Assembly: GCA_013239625.1 (NCBI GenBank)
Contig: MU054925.1
Span: 3,977,934-4,041,933, forward strand
Reading direction: 5' to 3'
Origin: Lama guanicoe
Lineage: Eukaryota
Length of the DNA: 64,000 bases
This document shows positions 3,494-60,610 of the stretch, piece by piece. The notes beneath the pieces were generated by a model. It saw nothing but the letters and a program-made list of their open reading frames with translations. It was not told the origin of the DNA and made no database searches. The translations under genes and the position numbers were made by a program. Position 1 is the first letter of the stretch; each line of letters starts with the position of its first letter.

Positions 3494-3553
3494 ATACTGG
3501 GTTACTTTGACTATGCTTTCACAGCCATCTTTACTGTTGAAATCCTATTGAAG
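3494..3553 (+). CDS. CACNA1D: exon 22 (IIIS2) ILGYFDYAFTAIFTVEILLK
   Basis: ccttgcag|ATA...AAG|gtaatg; 60 nt, phase 0/0. Confidence 0.96.
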
Positions 3554-3633: not shown

Positions 3634-3693
3634 ATGCTAGGTTATGCAGATTATGTCTTCACTGGTACTTTTGCATTTGAGATCATTTTGAAG
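3634..3693 (+). CDS. CACNA1D: alternative exon 22a (second IIIS2 copy) MLGYADYVFTGTFAFEIILK
   Basis: ttaccttccag|ATG...AAG|gtaaca; 60 nt, same phase and paralogous peptide as exon 22, 80 nt downstream of it. Confidence 0.88.
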
Positions 3694-12077: not shown

Positions 12078-12279
12078 GTTGCTGTACAGAGCCATCGACT
12101 CGAACGGAGAGAACGTCGGCCCCATCTACAACTACCGCGTGGAGATCTCCATCTTCTTCATCATCTACATCATCATCGTAGCGTTCTTCATGATGAACAT
12201 CTTTGTGGGCTTCGTCATCGTCACTTTTCAGGAGCAGGGGGAGAAAGAGTATAAGAACTGTGAGCTGGACAAAAATCAG
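12078..12279 (+). CDS. CACNA1D: exon 28 (IIIS6) [67 protein letters not shown]
   Basis: tccccag|G...CAG|gttaaa; 202 nt. Confidence 0.97.
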
Positions 12280-19034: not shown

Positions 19035-22000
19035 TACTTTTAAAATGTCTAATTTACATGCCCAGCCACTTGAGCTTGGAAGAAGAGTTATCAGTTTTGA
19101 GGAAGGAAGAAAGTGGTTTAGTGCTGTCCTCATGCTTTTGGACAGGGTGGACATGCAGTGGGCACTGGGTCATCCAGTCCCGTCAGCCTCTGAGGACAGC
19201 ACTCCGTACCCAGAGGCCCTGGCAGGAATGAGACTGCTTCAAAAGCCCCAGCAGCCTTCCCGGAGTACAGAGTTCCTAGAGTGACTAATGTTAATGCCGA
19301 ATAACACCCGAGAGCAGATATTTTTCTTCTCCTTAACTAGAACTTTATGCCAGACTCCTCCAGGGGCTCAGCCTGCCCCTTCCGTGTCGGGGTTTCCCCG
19401 GGCTCTCTCCTGGTCCCCTTCTCACCTGGTAAAAGGCCAGCATGCCTGGGGTGTTAGTGGCCAGCTCCACCTCGCCCCAGCCTGCACTGCCCTCCTCCCT
19501 CCTGAGCTGCTCTGATGGCTGAATCATCCCTGCCTCTAGCCTCAGCCTGCCTCCCTTCATCCCCCACACGCTCCCTTTGTAAACCCAAAGCTGACCGTGC
19601 CACCTATGGTGTGAAAGAAAAAAATCTGTAATTTCTTAATTGAATATTCAAAGTCCTGCACCAAACACTAGCCCACTTACATTTCTGCCTCACTGCTAGC
19701 CTCACTCTCCTGGCCATTCCTCCTCTCCACCATGTCCCCACTGCTGGCATGCTGGACCTTTCCTTGGCACAGGCTTCTATGTCTAAAGCCCTTTTTCCAC
19801 CTTGTTACCCTTTAAGGCCTGTCAGGAATGTGGGCTTCTCCGTGACAGTGTCCCCCAGCCCAGCCAGGTCAGCTCTCCTCTCACATGTGCTTCTTTTAGA
19901 TGCTCACGGTACGTTGTCGACATCAGGACCACCCTTGTCTCTCTCCATTAGGTGATGAGCAGCTGCTCAAGGTCACAGGTAGGGTTGTGTTTGTTTCACG
20001 CAATGCCTGCTACACGCTGGTTACTCAGTAAAAAGTGATGGAAGGAAGACAGGAGTGAAGGGATGAGCCTGTGAGTGTAGCCTCTTGGTATCAGATACTA
20101 CCTGCTTTTCTGTCACAGATTTGGGCAGAGCAGAATGGCCAATTGTGAATGCATTTTCTTTTGAGCCTCCACTTGACCTTTGGAAAGGCTTATGCTGGTT
20201 AGAAAGCTGTCAATTACAGTTTCTGCCCAAAGTCGGCACTGTGGTCATCCATTGGGTCGAATGCTACCCAGGCAACCCCTGGAAGGAATTGGTAAGTGAG
20301 CTGACTGCCTCAGTGAACAGCAAGGTGCCGATCACTTGTCCAGGTATCTTCAGACCTGCAGAGGTGAGAGACCCCAGGCAGCAGAAGGAACCTGGACTTG
20401 GGCTGCCTTTCTCATTTCCATTGCACAGACCTTGCCTCTTACTGTGTGCCACGCCCACACTCTGTCCTGCTGGGGGTCCAGGCTCTGCTTCCAGGAGCCT
20501 AGAGTCAGGCGGGAGACCACGTTGATGACAGTCAGGATAGAGTTCTTAGAAGCAAGGGAGCTTCCTGGCCCCAAGCCCACATCAGTCTGGTTTATGATTT
20601 TAAATTTCTGGAGTCAGAAGTGTTTCTGAGTAATAGATGTTATTGCATGTGGCTGACTTGCTTGGTCCTTTCAAATGGGTGAGGCTGGCTCTGGCTGGGC
20701 TGGTAGGGACTGCTGGTTCCACTGAGGGGACCCAACTCAGCATTCAGTTGTAGGAGACCCTGCTGTCACCGGCCAAGAGGGGAGAGCATGGTGGAAGCCC
20801 TTGCCTCACCTTCTGGTTACCCAGACACTGCGGTGACTTTGTCAGCAAAGGTGGGGGGCTGAGTCATACTCACTTGACAGTGATTTTACTACATAGGCGG
20901 CTACTAAACAGGGAAACGAGATGTGGGAAGAAGGGGCGGGCTGGCATTTTCTGCCTCCCGTGGACCCCTGGCAGAGCCACCTGGTCAGAGCCTGTGACTC
21001 CAGCCACCTGGACCGACTGAAGCCTCCTGTCACCTAGATTAGTGGAGTCAGCTTTCAGTCGAGGAACCCTCAGGAATTTCGGCACAGTTTTGTGAGCGCA
21101 GTTGGACACTCTGGAGAGTGAGGATGAGATGATTGGAGAGTTCCAGGACCCCACACAGTGCATCAAGCCCTTGTCGTGCTAATTTAAAGTGACTTTCCAC
21201 ACCACAGTGGGCCAGGACTGGCCAGTTGGAGAATGGTTTGTAGGCTGATAGGAAGGACCCAAAGGTGAATACTGATAATTCTGCAGAGACAGAAGCAGAG
21301 AGAGAGAGGAGCTATTCAGGAACAAAATCTAAAGTAGGTGAGAGGGGCATTGAGTCCACAGTGAGTGGGCGCGGCCTCGGTAGATGGTGGATATCAAGAG
21401 GTGGAGCAGAGCACGTGGCGCAGCCGCGGGTGGGGCTGGCCGTGTGCCGGGACGGGAGAGGAGGGACACCGGGTCTGCCACCGCTCTGTACCCTGGAGCC
21501 CCAGTTACTGATGACCATGCATTTATAAGGCATCAGCTCCTGCCTAGAGGTGCAGGGAGGGATCACCAGGCTCTGGAGCCTTGGGTTGCTGTTAACCCAC
21601 ATAAAAAAGGTCAGGCCCTGCCCTCAGCAGTTGGGAGAATCTTAAATTATTTAAGATGGAATTTGAAAAACAATCCCAAACCGTAAGTCAGTGTTATAGC
21701 TCCTCCGTAAACGCACTTGGGGTGATTAACAGTGACTAGAAGGAACATCCCAGTTACCAGAACAGCTAATGTGTCCTCGTTCTCTGCAGTGTAATAGAAG
21801 GCGGGGACTCCGCGGTGGCTTCCTCTGGGCCTGCACTGGATCACCAGTTCATGGGACCTGACACTTCAAAGGGCTTTCCGTTCTGGTTTTGAGCACTAAG
21901 TGTACCCAGTTGTAAGCACGCTGGGCTCCGTTTTATGTAATTCAGACCTGAATTTTTATTTCCAAAACATGCTCCAACTTGTTGAAAAGATGCAGTTGAA

Positions 22001-23401: not shown

Positions 23402-23485
23402 GGGTACTTTAGTGATGCCTGGAACACGTTTGACTCCCTCATCGTAATCGGCAGCATTGTAGACGTGGCCCTCAGCGAAGCTGAC
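23402..23485 (+). CDS. CACNA1D: exon 31a (IVS3) [28 protein letters not shown]
   Basis: ctgtccag|GGG...GAC|gtgagt; 84 nt. Confidence 0.96.
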
Positions 23486-24283: not shown

Positions 24284-24874
24284 GGACAGTATGGAGGTTC
24301 CTTAAAAAACTAAAAATAGACACACCAGCAATCCCACTCCTGGGCATATATCTGGAGAAAACTATAATTTGAAAANNNNNNNNNNNNNNNNNNNNNNNNN
24401 NNNNNNNNNNNNNNNNNNNNNNNNNNNNNNNNNNNNNNNNNNNNNNNNNNNNNNNNNNNNNNNNNNNNNNNNNNNNNNNNNNNNNNNNNNNNNNNNNNNN
24501 NNNNNNNNNNNNNNNNNNNNNNNNNNNNNNNNNNNNNNNNNNNNNNNNNNNNNNNNNNNNNNNNNNNNNNNNNNNNNNNNNNNNNNNNNNTGTTGAGTGA
24601 AGTCAGACAGAAAAAGACAAATATCATGATACCACTTATATGTGGAGTCTAAAAGTAATGATATAAATTCTATTTACAAACTAAAAACAGACTCACAGAC
24701 ATAGAAAACAAACTGGTTACCAAAGGGGAAAGGGCAGGGAGGGATAAATTAGGGGTTGAGAATTAACAGACACACATTACTATATATAAAATAGATAAAC
24801 AACAAGGATCTACTGTATAGGACAGGGAACTATATTCAATTTCTTGTAATAAGATATAATAGAAAAGGAAAAAA
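24284..24874 (+). mobile_element. truncated LINE-1 (ORF2 end and 3'UTR), sense to host gene, partly gapped
   Basis: cagtatggaggttccttaaaaaactaaaaatag...ccagcaatcccactcctgggcatatatc...agactcacagacatagaaaacaaac...acagggaactatattcaa; TSD agaccttatta at 24273-24283 and 24875-24885. Confidence 0.9.
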
Positions 24875-27800
24875 AGACCTTATTAAAATGTTAAGCGCCA
24901 GGAGTTAATTATGTGAGTATGTGAACATTATCGCTCACTAGCTGTGTGACCTTGGCAGGACACCCGGCTGCTTTGTGCCTCAGTTTATCCATTTGGAAAG
25001 TAGAGCTCATAATATTTGCCTTGGTACCCACTGTGGCACCCACCATGGTGGGTACCAAGGCACAGGGGGGATGCCCCACAGCTGTGCCCTGAGCACATGG
25101 CCACCACCTTGGGTGTCCTCACCTGTACCCTGTGTCTGCCGAGTCCTACCAGTGACCCTGGGTAACATCCCTGTCCTAGCTCCCCAAATATCGATGCAGA
25201 TTGAAGGCTGCCCTGGGCTAGGGGACAGAGGGCCTAGTGTGTATCAGGGGAGGGTGTCTGTGCTCTCTCGTTTGTTGCACCCAGTTGAATTCTTTGTTGA
25301 GGGAACAAGTGCAGTAGCAGCGTGGTAGCTTGAGTGAACCTCCTGTAGGAAGTACCCTGAGAATGCTCCTCAGAATTCAGGGGCTCCAGAAAGGGGAACA
25401 GTGCCTCCCACTCGCCCCTTTTGGATCTGACCCATGCCTAGACTGAAAGGGCCCGAGGCCAACAGAAATGGCCCTGCCCACCTGGCCTGTCCCCGGTTCA
25501 TCAGCAGGTCTCTGTGGGTGTCCAGCATGTGCCACTAGGTTGTGTGAAGCCCTTTTCGGGGATGGGTGGAGCATGAGGGAACTGTTGGGCTGTGCTGGCT
25601 TCTTGCTCCACACTGCCAGCCTGGCCTTCCTTCCCCAACACCTGGCCGGGAAGGGGTCACCATGCTCTGCCTGGCTGACATCTGTGGGACTGCATGGTCC
25701 ATCCTGGTGCCTAGACAGCCTGCCTCACATAAAAATGATGGTGTCTCTGAGGGCCACCAGTTTGGGGGCCAGGCTGATTGTGGAGTGTAGAATAGTGGCA
25801 CAGCCACTAGCCTGGACCCCAGCCTCTGTTCCCTCGTGGGTCCACTGGGGTGAATGACACCTGCCCTTCCTGCTTTGTAGGTTCATTGCAATGATAAAAT
25901 GATAGGAGTAGTTGTGAAGATACTTGTTCAAAACCCAAAAGTGTTAGGAAGACAAAATGGAATTATTTTAAATGTAGATTTTCCCCGTATTAATAAGGAA
26001 AATGAACTGTAAGACTTTACCACGTGCGTGAGGGTGTGAGTCGAGCCTCATGACACTCAAATTCGTGCCATGACAAAGGAGTAAAATGGTATTTTCCTAG
26101 ACCTCAGTACATGCATCCTCCAACCTCCAGAATCTCAGACTTGTGAATTATTTCACACAAAGTGGAATTCATATAAATCACCTATAAAATTGGCACTTAT
26201 AATATGTAAATTATGCTTGGTTATAAAATAACCTTATACTAATGGGAGAGCAGCAGGGCTGCTCACCAGGCTGCCGTGGGCTCTCTCCTGAGTTTATGAC
26301 CAGACATCTACCTGCTTAATCATCTCACAACATAAAGCACTTACAGCCTTCATCAAAGTACACTTACTTGAACATTCTGGAACCAGACCCTTATGTTAGT
26401 CAGAGGCAGCCTATAATGGAAGTGGAAAAACCATAAACAACAATTTCAGCAGGTCCCTCCGTGCTTCAACTGTTGTGCAGGTGGTAGGGTGAAGGCTTCG
26501 TTTCTGGGCACCAGGATGTGGCCAGGGTTTGTTCACCCAGCAGACAGCCCAGCTCTCTAATGCCTGACCCGCACGCTGGCTGCCGGGTGCTCGGTGACAG
26601 CACACGCCAGTTTCTGGGCTGCCTCGCCGTGTGCTGCGGGCTGGCACCCACTGCACCTTCTCCTCTGGTTCAGCCCTGCTCTTCATTGTCTCCGACATGT
26701 TCCCCTTCACCTTCCATCAGTCAGGAAAGCCACAGGTCTATAAAAGCCCACATGAAGTTTTTTAGGTAGCACTTGACATTGGAGTGTCCATACAATCCAG
26801 GCTTTCGTTGACATTCAGTCATACCAGTTAACTTCCTTGTACTGTTTTTCAGTGTGTAACCATTCTCCTGGTCAGATGAAGGCTGAGACCAAAGCTTCCT
26901 GAGCCCAAAGCAATGCCAGTTCAATGCCCTGGGCCAGTAGAAACCCCCTTGGGGGACCTTAGGTATTCCTGTGCTTGGCCTCAGCGCAGAGGGAATGCTC
27001 AAGGGCCCCTCTTGATTCGGTCCTTTGTCACATCTTTATTGGGCATCTACAAAAAGAAAGAAGAGACTGAGTGCCCCTACCCTCTGCTGACATAACTATC
27101 TGCAGGGAGTTAGTGGTTCTTCCACCCCACCTCCCGCACATCAGGTTCCCCAGGGAAGCAATGCACATCATTTTCCTTGGTGGCCTTGCCCCCCAAGCTC
27201 CTGCGTCAGCTGAGCATGAATATTCTTGGTCCATTGTTGGCTGTTTTTAGCTACCAAACGTCATCATTTTTTGCAATGTTTAACTTGCTGTGCTCTCTCT
27301 CCCAACCTCTGTTGATCTTTCTTTTCTGTTGCCTAATTGATTTTCATGTTGGTTTTATTTTTAGAAAATTGTAGCGGCAAGTATATATAAACATATATAC
27401 GGTGAAGTCGTTGTTAAAGCAAAAGCGCTCGAAAGACTGTATACTTGTCTTTGGCTTCCCCACCTTTGGTTTTCACTGAGTTTCACAGGAGTGCAGTGGG
27501 TTGTGGTCATCTAAATTGTTTGCTGTGCCCTATTTCATTATCTCCAGCCTGAGGCCTGAGCTGGGGCCATCTTGGTCTGTCACGCTTGGCTCTGTGACAT
27601 GCCAGAATAGTCTTCAAAAATGAATGATCTGGCCTGGAAATGAGAAATTGAGCTTGCGTTTGCATTCTTTGTGCAGACATTTTGGATGGCCCTTTCCGTT
27701 GTCCTGCTTGCACGCTCACCCAGCCCTCTCCATCTTGCTGCCCCGCTCCCACGCCCCACACCCTGCCACGGTCATGGTTTGATAGCTTTCGTGGACTTGT

Positions 27801-29270: not shown

Positions 29271-31280
29271 CTGGCCTGCCCTTCTCCTCAAGCTGGCGTT
29301 TGTAGTTTAGGCAAAGCCATCCTCAGGGTCCCTCAGTGTGTAAGATATTTTGGCAACTTGCACTTTCCCCTAGTGCTACCCGTGACATCCTGCCCTGCGC
29401 AGTCCTCCCTGCCCAACATGGCATAGGGGGAGGGAGGTGTCACAGGCTGCACTGGGGGTGCACGCAGCCTGGTGTGCCGTTTGCTCTGCCCTTCCTTTCT
29501 TGCATGTTGTGCTGCCTTGCCCCTCCACAAATGCTGTCTCTTCCTCTTTTTTTTTTTTAAACTAAAGACTACCCATGGTTTCACCTTCATAGCCCAAGAT
29601 TTGTCATGCTTCAAAGATATCAGTTGAAAAGGAGATGTGCGCTTCAAAAGTCAATTTGGCTGCTGACTTCCCCGTATAAGAGGGGCATAGCAGGCCCATC
29701 AGACTTGGGGTAGGCTGGGGAGGGGCAAGCAAGAGAAGCCGTGGCCTGGAAGTGTCTTCCTCAACCATACAGCCTCCTTATTCTCTTGCAGGTCCAAAGT
29801 ACAAGTTATGGACATTGCAAAAGTATACTGTAGAGTGTCTGTCTTATGCACACTCTGGTCCCCTTGAGCATAGGCAAGCATACAAACACACCCCCCACAC
29901 ACTCCAGCTGCATGGGCGAGACTGGAGCCTCCTGCACACAGCCCGTAGGGAGATGGTGTGGGAGAGATTGAGAACTTTGGGAAATAAATTCCTTCACTTG
30001 ATAAAGTCATTGAATTAAAAACCATCATCTGTCCCTTTAAGAAGATGAGATAATAGAGGGAATATAAAAAGAGTGACTGGGCTTTGACCAACCTATTGGA
30101 GAGTTCACATTCTGAGCATCCCAGGTGAAGCAGAAACCTCTTTAGCCCCAGCAGAACCTGTTAGTCCAGGGTTCATAGTCTTGTTGAATTTTAGTTGTGA
30201 TGTGATGTGCTCAAACTCCTTATATTTTTTGAATTTTATAGAGTTTTATGTTTGGTCTCAGGAGGCAGCCGTTGATGAGAGTGGGACTTTAGAACGGAGT
30301 TTTTCCTTTCCCTGTATCTCCAGGGAGGAGAGCCCGTTAGATGAGGGTGTGTGACCATGCGTGCACACACATCCCTTAGCTGTGCAGACACCATGCAGAG
30401 AGGCTCCCTAGAGCCCTGGAGAGTACTCAGCCATCCAGGCCCCCAACCAGAAGAGCCTCCTTCCTTTGCTGGCTGCCAGGTAGACAAGCTGCTTCAGCTG
30501 AGGTGACCCCCCCCCCACCTTGAAGGGAAAAGAATGGCTGTCATTTCCCAGCTCTTGTTCAGTCTCTACTGTTTAAAGATGCCTCCTGATATTTGTGAGT
30601 TTGCTTACAATCTCTGCATTCTCATAAACACTTATTGAACCTCTAGTAAGTTCCAGACACCATGGTGGGCACTGAGTGGAGTGAGGCAAGGTCCCTGCCC
30701 TCAGGGGGCTCACAGGCTGAGCGGGGAGGCAGATGAGCACAGGGTGACAGTGCAGGGATTCTGCACCCTGGGGCCCAAGTGGCAGGAGCCCAGCCAGACC
30801 TGGGGTGAAGCAGCACTGCTGAAGTTCAGGGCAAGCTGCTGCTAAGTTGTTTCTTCCCAAGAGCCACACAGAGCTAAGCTTTCTGGGTTGGGCAGTGAAG
30901 GCTTCTGGAGGGAAACCAGCCCCTCTCCTGCAGTGCCCGGCTCCTTGGCTGCCGCACCAGAGAGGGCCCCACTGGACACGTGCTGCCTAGGTGTGCGGCT
31001 CCGGGAACAGAGTAGGGTCCAGGAGGCCTGTGGACCACAGGGAGCTCCCACCCTGTTTGCCTTGTTTAGTAGAGCCTTTCTGTTCCTCAGGGTTAGGGAT
31101 GGCCTGCCGCAGAGTGGTTAGTTCCTCAGACCCACAACCCTGACAAAGAAAAGAGAACCAGTCTCCCCCCAGAAGCAGAGTCCTCCTCTGCATTTTCGGG
31201 CTCAGAACACTGAGGTCTTGCAGCATTACCTTTTACTGGACGTCTGTCAGCCTTGGAACATTACGTCCTGGGTGTGAGTT

Positions 31281-31546: not shown

Positions 31547-31591
31547 CCAACTGAAAGTGAAAGTGTCCCTGTCCCAACTGCTACACCTGGG
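31547..31591 (+). CDS. CACNA1D: alternative exon 32 (IVS3-S4 linker) PTESESVPVPTATPG
   Basis: ttcttaaag|CCA...GGG|gtaaga; 45 nt; TGCATG downstream at 31792-31797. Confidence 0.93.
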
Positions 31592-40620: not shown

Positions 40621-41869
40621 TAGTTCTTGGCCAACACACTGGTTTCAATGACAGAGTCTCCAGGAAGCCCAGCATGTTTGCAGAACACTCAAGGTATCAG
40701 CCAGAGCAGTAGGGCCAGCAGCCGCAGAAGGCCCTTTGGCCATTGGTGCAATTATCTGGGTTAACGTGAGACCATTCCAGACAAAGGAGAGACTTCAGTG
40801 ACAAGGAAACCAAGACCCAGATGACTGAAGCTGGGTTTTCTTGTGGGTGGAGGAACTAGGAGAATAAGCTTACTGCCTGAAAACCAAAAGCCTGTATTTT
40901 GGGGGCCCAAAATGAAATATTTAAAACTAGTTTCCATTTATCCTTCAACGTATTGTTGAAAAAGTCTCACAAAAAAAATTTCAGAAAATGATATTTTCAA
41001 AATGTTCTCGTCAAAACCGATTCTATTACCATAATTACCAAAAATGTCCCTTTAATTAGAATTTAGAGTAGAGACAGAATAGGCATGCTTATTTCCTTCG
41101 TTGTTTATCACAAAATAACTTACTAAACTTTTTTCAGATTTATATATATATAAAATACATATATATATATAAGACAGATACTGTTTTTTCGTTTTGGTTG
41201 AAGTACACATGAACTTACCAGTGGAGGTGGTTGTTTTTTGACTGTTTTGTTTTCAAGTTTTAAAGGTGCAGGATCGGTTTGCTGAGCGCCCCTACCCCTG
41301 GACGCATTAGAAGCATTCCGTGTGTTTTATAACCAACTGAACTTTTATGTGTCACTGTTCCTGCAGCCTTCCAGATGGGGCTGGCTCAGGTCTGGAAGCT
41401 GACTCTGGAACCCCAAGCCAGGACGGTGGCCACCGTCTTTCTCTCTGAGAAGGTGACAACTCTGGCTCTTGGTGGGGCAGAGAGAGTGGCACACTGGCCA
41501 GCTCCGCTCCTCAGCATGACTCGAGAAGCAATGTGAGCTTTTGTCACTGCCACCCATAGCTGGCAGGGCCACTGGCTCAATGCTGGGAGAGATGGCCCAC
41601 AAAGAAATGATAAAAAGAAAGTGCAAAAAAAAAAAACAACCCAGAAAAAACACAAACCAAAAATCCTCCCACCTAGGGAGAGAACCCTGGCTCTCCACAG
41701 GAGAACTGATGCTGCACTTTTTAAAACAACTCTTTGGTTTTCGTTCTTTTCTTTTTAGCTGCACACCCAGGTGCTCGCATGGCTGAGATGAATTGCTTTT
41801 TCAAATCGTTGTAATGATGTGCTTGAGCTTTTTCTGCAGCCTCCATTCCTTTCAACTCTCAGTCTTTCA

Positions 41870-55480: not shown

Positions 55481-56470
55481 TTCAGGGTGCTGTGCTTAAG
55501 CTTCGTTTCAGTTCAATTTTGGGAACATGTGTTTCCCTCCTTCCCAGCCCTGGCGACACCCCTGTCCCCTGTAGTGTCCCCCCGCCCATCCTTCCTCCCC
55601 TCCCCTGTGAAAGAGTAAAGTCAGTCCCTGACTGTTAGAAGGTATGTTTCTTCCTGCGTGGAACAAACGAAATATAATCATGTTCTCTAAGCCTCTGCTT
55701 TCCTGTCTGGGAAGAGTGATGCTTTCTCTCCTCCTTTGATGTCTCTTTAATAAATATGTTGTTGTTATTTGTCTTTGGAAGCGGTCTCTTGGGCCACCTC
55801 TCACTTTTCTCCGTGATTTATGTTGCAAACAAACCCTCTGTCTTGTGTCTGTTCACTGCTCTCTCCTAATCTTGTGTATCATTGAAAACATGCTGAAGAN
55901 NNNNNNNNNNNNNNNNNNNNNNNNNNNNNNNNNNNNNNNNNNNNNNNNNNNNNNNNNNNNNNNNNNNNNNNNNNNNNNNNNNNNNNNNNNNNNNNNNNNN
56001 NNNNNNNNNNNNNNNNNNNNNNNNNNNNNNNNNNNNNNNNNNNNNNNNNNNNNNNGGTGTTATTTAAACAGAGCGTTCCTGGCCCACGATGTACATAGTT
56101 TACCTGGGGGTGCTGACTTGGTGCACTGTCACCTGTGTGTGTTTTGTGGCACTGGCAGTGGGTGTCTCAAACCTAGTCTCTTGTTTAGGAGCCTCAGATA
56201 GGTAACAGCGCTTTCTTCCCAGTGATTCAAAATCAGATGGTGAAGCCCTGGCTTAGTTTATCTCCCCTTGATGATTGTGCCCTAGAAAGCACTGCCTGGA
56301 TGAATGGCAGGCTGTTGGGTAGAGCTGGGCTCAGCCTTGCTGCCCCGGCCTGCAGCTCTGCCGGGCAGGAGCTTTCACCCACTTGGCATTCAAGTTGCTG
56401 TCTTGTTGTTTCCCTGAGAATGGTGTGGGTCTGCTGCTAAGCCAGACGGTTCCCCAGGCTCGAATGTGCT

Positions 56471-60583: not shown

Positions 60584-60610
60584 AACCCGCTATTATGAAA
60601 CTTACATTAG
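60584..60610 (+). CDS. CACNA1D: alternative microexon 44 TRYYETYIR
   Basis: cctggatag|A...AG|gtatgt; 27 nt; TGC at -16 (SRRM4-type position). Confidence 0.93.

Follow-up and report, generated by a model that had tools for sequence, protein, structure and literature searches.

The central part of CACNA1D (Cav1.3) lies on the + strand of the 64,000-nt stretch of DNA analysed here, referred to below as the window, and the intron between its first exon 31 and the cassette exon 32 contains a set of splice signals that could delimit a 12-nt exon in the IVS3-S4 linker. The signals themselves are confirmed, and a microexon is a plausible, as yet unproven, interpretation of them. We favour the reading that the site is a candidate for a rare, cell-type-restricted, in-frame Cav1.3 microexon that is likely repressed by PTBP1, and assign this a probability of roughly 0.4. 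The coordinates of the site and its neighbours are given in Table 1.

Table 1. Position of the candidate exon, its splice signals and the CACNA1D exons used for orientation.
Feature	Position in window	Strand	Remark
CACNA1D first exon 31 (IVS3), upstream context	23402..23485	+	84 nt, model mapping
AG-free, pyrimidine/T-rich tract ahead of candidate acceptor	27251..27362	+	112 nt
CU-rich cluster, predicted PTBP1 site	27293..27301	+	motif scan; binding inferred
UGC at -35, then two overlapping branch-point-like motifs (-32, -28)	27330..27341	+	branch-point use inferred
Candidate 3' splice-site AG	27363..27364	+	3.1 bits
Candidate in-frame microexon of 12 nt; its four codons give one Lys and three hydrophobic residues	27365..27376	+	splice-signal configuration
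Predicted hairpin over both donors, 8-bp AU-rich stem and 6-bp outer stem	27373..27412	+	-9.6 kcal/mol
Candidate GC 5' splice site (GC at 27377-78)	27377..27384	+	U1 match at -1, +1, +3 to +8
Competing GT donor, 4 nt downstream of GC	27381..27382	+	would give 16-nt frameshifting exon
CACNA1D cassette exon 32 (15 residues, IVS3-S4 linker), downstream context	31547..31591	+	45 nt, model mapping
CACNA1D exon 44, known 27-nt neural microexon	60584-60610		used as positive control

Splice signals between exons 31 and 32

The exons of a human Cav1.3 model can be placed one after another along the window, between position 21 and about 63,260. The solved Cav1.3 chain 7uhf_A matches the first exon 31, and a Camelus ferus model shares 99% identity with the exon at 12078-12279. 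The candidate site is located 3.9 kb past the first exon 31 and 4.2 kb ahead of exon 32, and protein models put the place of a second exon 31 between these two exons. Because the first exon 31 ends and exon 32 begins on a codon boundary, a 12-nt insert keeps the reading frame, and the 0/0 phase that the original prediction assigned to the site is borne out by the exon mapping. Its choice of the IVS3-S4 linker as a place where splicing affects gating is likewise supported by passages in three studies (PMC5279877, PMC6161609, PMC7781618).

The elements originally described, i.e., a pyrimidine-rich tract of about 112 nt free of AG, a branch-like motif, and an AG separated by 12 nt from a GC donor, are all in place. 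The tract is bounded by AG dinucleotides at 27249-50 and 27363-64, and consists of 71% pyrimidines and 49% T, which places it in the top 0.6% and top 0.3%, respectively, of 112-nt windows. In a motif scan, it contains nine CU motifs per 112 nt (top 1.3% of windows), and U-run motifs are also dense around it. Branch-like YTRAY motifs are present at -53, -32 and -28, and YCAY motifs at -134, -104, -101 and -21. The same scan found no RBFOX motif within 150 nt of the candidate, and there is no UGC enhancer within 25 nt of the acceptor, the nearest UGC being that at -35.

Both splice sites are weaker than the average for the gene, as judged by matrices trained on 21 real exons of CACNA1D, a small and in-sample set. 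The acceptor score of 3.1 bits compares with 4.1 +/- 2.2 for the 21 real acceptors, and is equalled or exceeded by 221 of the 4,883 AGs in the window. The donor had been described as matching the GC-AG consensus, which holds for the intron side (+1 and +3 to +8) and for -1, but not for -3 and -2, so the exon side is weak. With 8/11 matches to U1, it is nevertheless one of only six among the 3,639 GC dinucleotides in the window that reach at least that number. Its score is 3.2 bits, against a mean of 4.6 for real CACNA1D donors, and the predicted U1 duplex has an energy of -6.5 kcal/mol, against a median of -7.7 for the 21 real donors.

Two features that do not figure in the original prediction affect the donor region, a canonical GT donor 4 nt beyond the GC and a predicted hairpin that covers both donors. 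Splicing from the same AG to the GT donor would yield a 16-nt exon that shifts the frame and, when joined to exon 32, runs into a stop at codon 8. Such a poison microexon could lower the level of Cav1.3 mRNA through NMD, and decay of the transcript would explain why neither the protein models nor RT-PCR at steady state show it (see below). The GT donor also has 8/11 U1 matches, but lacks a G at -1 and +5, and falls behind the GC donor both in score (0.7 versus 3.2 bits) and in U1 pairing (-4.0 versus -6.5 kcal/mol), meaning that the better of the two short donors served by the main AG is the in-frame one. Moreover, any consensus donor carries a GT at that offset, and the literature on CACNA1D poison exons provides, among the matches listed, no pointer to the site. 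We regard a poison exon as quite unlikely.

The original prediction also offered exons of 6 or 27 nt that start from the next AG, at 27373-74. As for the 12-nt exon, both are in frame and introduce no stop codon, and that part of the claim stands. The second AG, however, scores only -1.7 bits and is located 8 nt behind a better one, the donor of the 27-nt option has 4/11 U1 matches, and inserts of two or nine residues do not occur in the 264 mammalian Cav1.3 models described below, which makes use of this AG highly improbable. A longer exon, or an alternative last exon, starting from the candidate AG was rejected as well: the frame stays open for 49 codons, but supporting signals are missing, with no other GT donor of at least 7/11 U1 matches within 535 nt of the AG and no polyadenylation hexamer before 29983.

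The hairpin has a z-score of -3.1 on a hand-picked 41-nt window, and values of +0.4 and -0.2, which are not significant, on windows of 101 and 201 nt. A hairpin over the donors, along with the density of CU, YCAY and U-run motifs, would suit an element that acts unspliced, where the tract and the weak sites bind PTBP1, U2AF or U1 as a decoy, and thereby tune whether exon 31a or 31b is chosen or whether exon 32 is skipped. The latter exon is a listed target of Rbfox and Nova, and the lack of any trace of inclusion in the 264 models agrees with such a role. On the other hand, the site is about 4 kb away from each flanking exon and shows no complementarity to the exon 31 or exon 32 regions, and a decoy leaves the in-frame spacing of the signals unexplained; we judge this role distinctly unlikely. 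Long-range pairing with exon 31 or exon 32, according to a docking-site model, was rejected since complementarity is absent near either exon; the best long-range match for the site is an AT-rich segment of 14 nt, 27 kb away. Farther along the same intron, positions 29466-29600 hold a pyrimidine-rich, acceptor-like site with 98 nt free of AG, and RBFOX-type motifs are found near 29500 and 29910. No donor with more than 6/11 U1 matches is present within 260 nt of that site.

Chance expectation and sequence origin

Taken alone, the AG-free run is ordinary, because shuffled sequences and neighbouring DNA often give runs of equal length. At 112 nt it ranks third among the 4,891 gaps in the window, where the second-longest stretch measures 115 nt (55780-55897). 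A run that long is present in 32-45 of 100 dinucleotide-preserving block shuffles, and the neighbouring 398 kb contains 55 gaps of such length (35 of them on the + strand, the other 20 on the - strand). A mononucleotide shuffle was dropped as a null model because it ignores the over-representation of AG.

The full package of splice signals was assessed with a composite test that combines an AG-free stretch of at least 80 nt, a pyrimidine tract, and an in-frame GT or GC donor with at least 8/11 U1 matches within 30 nt. In the window, only the candidate matches, and a match is present in one of 100 shuffles. On the two strands of the neighbouring 398 kb, a single match was obtained among 233 such gaps, and it coincides with the end of a genuine coding exon. 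The package is thus rare at the stricter cut, with thresholds that were fixed post hoc; because they were set once the candidate had already been seen, the actual probability of a chance match exceeds 1%. When the cut is relaxed to 50 nt, the window contains two matches, matches turn up in 18 of 100 shuffles, and the neighbouring DNA has six on the + strand, five of them away from mapped exons, and none on the - strand. Ranked by the matrices, the candidate pair is number 13 of 5,830 in-frame configurations of AG with GT or GC, and number 7 of the 2,917 that use GC.

The leading alternative is that the site is a pseudo-exon that is never used and has no function, formed where a T-rich stretch of the intron by chance ends in an AG near a GC-donor-like word. 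This would fit the ease with which AG-free runs of this length arise, the five non-exonic look-alikes and the shuffle matches at the 50-nt cut, the fact that twelve intronic configurations elsewhere in the window outscore the candidate on the matrices, and the absence of the candidate from all models and tables examined. It fits less well with the rarity of the package at the 80-nt cut, with the position of the site, in the right phase, in a known splicing hotspot, and with the tract not being a decayed repeat. A weak hint of constraint is also given by five CpG in a stretch of 71 nt that covers the exon and what follows it, where about 6% of 70-nt windows have at least four. We consider a pseudo-exon possible, if somewhat doubtful.

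In-frame intronic configurations with a GT donor at 19952-19978 (27 nt) and 41759-41770 (12 nt) have higher matrix scores than the candidate. Upstream of the window, microexon-like configurations are found on the + strand at L006:2434-2439, L015:1941-1949, L031:7659-7664 and L039:5522-5551, and the strand bias of six (+) to none (-) at the 50-nt cut may hide real small exons.

An origin of the tract as the tail of an antisense retroposon was rejected, since the 398 kb yield one marginal match (E 0.01), compared with 26-29 for a nearby repeat. A search for relatives of the site elsewhere in the genome, which skips common words, returned only the self match, and a tandem repeat was not found at the site. 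The nearby repeat is part (24600-24870) of an interspersed repeat fragment at 24300-24870, which we take to be L1. With respect to conservation, metagenome scans gave no orthologous intron (0 exact matches); an exon 31 query against metagenome contigs identified one locus, on a short contig with 59% identity, that is of no use for the intron.

Search for use of the candidate exon

Splicing-in of the 12-mer, as proposed in the original prediction, is so far unsupported by protein models, exon tables or brain RT-PCR. The proteins were gathered by protein searches and cluster look-ups (for example, 15 members of a 1,104-member cluster), and of the 454 obtained, 386 contain both the end of IVS3 and the start of S4, and 264 are mammalian and of Cav1.3 type. 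The candidate insert, whether of four, two or nine residues and with or without exon 32, is found in 0 of these 264. The IVS3-S4 inserts that do occur comprise 0 residues in 66 models, 15 in 193, 17 in four and 19 in one; the 17-residue insert is the marsupial exon 32 and the 19-residue insert an unrelated prediction. This sample is skewed towards forms with exon 32 by one query, its entries are not independent, and the pipelines behind the models may miss microexons. Three fish Cav1 models (P0381, P0414 and P0416) carry a three-residue insert, GLQ, in the IVS3-S4 linker, possibly encoded by a 9-nt microexon.

At the RNA level, RT-PCR from exon 31a or 31b to exon 33 in mouse and human brain, with sequencing of the bands, gave only combinations of exons 31a, 31b and 32, as far as the available text of the study goes (LaCarubba et al., bioRxiv 598722). 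The gels are described there as 2-3% agarose, which may not resolve 12 nt. Contigs from four public runs, compared with the intron just upstream of the candidate, stem from close relatives and contain no splice joints. In run X1, contigs of about 97.5% identity extend over 27 of the 30 bins into which the upstream intron was divided, a pattern consistent with nascent RNA or DNA; runs X11 and X12 contribute one short contig each on the upstream intron, and X13 none. The divergence of the upstream-intron contigs, for close relatives only, is no different from the background. These contigs carry no information on inclusion or on deep conservation.

Published exon tables do not list the candidate either. 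The sole Cacna1d entry across four of the five supplement files of Li 2015 is a 27-nt exon, the tables of Ling 2020 contain Cacna1d exons of 84 and 27 nt, and those of Ciampi 2022 a 27-nt zebrafish cacna1d exon. Weyn-Vanhentenryck 2018 gives exons of 60, 45 and 27 nt in a known-exon list, which leaves out novel exons, and one of 60 nt in a developmental list. The MicroExonator supplements of Parada 2021 have no Cacna1d row, and this absence is given little weight because there is no positive control. The original prediction held that a microexon with a GC donor can escape annotation pipelines, and this agrees with the description of MicroExonator discovery, which retains only GT-AG insertions (PMC7821500). 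Because at least this one microexon pipeline is restricted in this way, the negatives from the catalogues are soft. A literature search retrieved no report of the candidate exon within its scope; VastDB, Irimia 2014 and bioRxiv supplements are outside that scope, and may list it.

Proposed repression and comparison with known exons

The reading of the site as a PTBP1-repressed microexon is favoured by the rarity of the composite, the density of CU motifs, the non-repeat nature of the tract, and the in-frame position of the better donor. Against it stand the absence from models, tables and RT-PCR, the donor mismatches at -3 and -2, the lack of a near UGC or RBFOX motif, and the commonness of the AG-free run by itself. 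According to Li et al. 2015 (PMC4317164), alternative micro-exons tend to have T-rich upstream flanks and weak splice sites and to be repressed by PTBP1. As described by Churbanov 2008 (PMC2490688), GC donors are enriched in alternatively spliced genes, and usually stay close to the consensus outside +2. The candidate has a length of 12 nt, within the 3-27 nt of frame-preserving microexons that extend from an AG to a 5' splice site, contains no stop, and is preceded by a CU-rich tract as expected for a PTBP1-repressed microexon.

We envisage that PTBP1 bound to the CU-rich tract would hold the exon off in most tissues, aided by the weak GC donor and by the hairpin over it. In cells with little PTBP1, such as neurons or endocrine cells, U2AF/SF1 and U1 could then define the exon, and U1 pairing at +7 and +8 may offset the C at +2. 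The resulting four-residue peptide would lengthen the extracellular IVS3-S4 linker at its beginning, either alone or together with exon 32. With its single Lys, the insert would follow IVS3, a few residues above the D4 countercharge. Neutralisation of this countercharge shifts activation of Cav1.3 (PMC6161609), and the length and flexibility of the linker tune activation (PMC5279877). Activation would likely be moved by a few millivolts, as with exon 32, in a direction that is not predictable.

A more far-reaching form of this proposal is that the site represents a conserved, unannotated GC-donor microexon that constitutes a third module of the Cav1.3 IVS3-S4 linker, a four-residue insert with a Lys immediately above the D4 countercharge, and switched on in a narrow cell type such as hair cells, photoreceptors, or particular neurons or endocrine cells, where the 4-nt shift between donors would decide whether a gating variant or a poison exon is made. 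We consider this unlikely.

The closest known relative by position is exon 32, with which the candidate shares the intron neighbourhood, the loop and the 0/0 phase. Exon 32, however, is 45 nt long, has a GT donor, is present in 193 of the 264 models and is proven by RT-PCR, in contrast to the unobserved 12-nt candidate with its GC donor. Inclusion of exon 32 is reported to shift activation by about -3 to -4 mV in PMC7781618, whereas a study cited there found a shift of opposite sign, +3 mV.

The exon 31a microexons of Cav2.1 and Cav2.2 are proven, and with 6 nt encode NP in Cav2.1 and ET in Cav2.2. The candidate is similar to them as a tiny in-frame exon for the IVS3-S4 linker with YCAY motifs upstream, a likeness of anatomy, since the genome search returned no sequence relative of it elsewhere. 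The Cav2 exons are repressed by Nova2, as stated in a passage of PMC12149502. As for the 12-nt exon of KDM1A in PMC4317164, the candidate comprises 12 nt in frame, with weak splice sites and a CU-rich upstream flank. The PTBP1-repressed micro-exons described in that paper have inclusion, CLIP signal and conserved flanks, whereas the candidate is known from its sequence alone. Its resemblance to known IVS3-S4 microexons is thus anatomical, and membership in the class is a candidate assignment that depends on inclusion and conservation.

Exon 44, an SRRM3/4-dependent neural microexon of the same gene, has an AG-free zone that is longer than average (62 nt), a branch-like motif, and a UGC at -16. 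The candidate resembles it in being in frame, with a long AG-free zone and a branch-like motif, but differs in that exon 44 has a GT donor, is listed in human and zebrafish tables, and has its UGC much closer to the acceptor than the -35 of the candidate. In microexons that depend on SRRM3/4, the UGC enhancer is usually located about 20 nt from the 3' splice site. That the enhancer is next to the 3' splice site in this subclass is also described in bioRxiv 2024.06.13.598849, and the candidate lacks this near-UGC feature.

Cav1.3 governs pacemaking, hearing, the release of hormones and the excitability of neurons, and changes of a few millivolts in its activation are of consequence (PMC7781618). 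If the candidate is true, it would add a gating variant that the constructs and drug screens now in use, and the interpretation of variants from exons, leave out of account, and would be a clean case of a GC-donor microexon overlooked by pipelines restricted to GT-AG. Even then, it would only extend a known class, because such events are already well known. Elsewhere in the gene, a tandem pair of 60-nt exons is found at 3494-3553 and 3634-3693, which are likely the mutually exclusive exons labelled 22a and 22.
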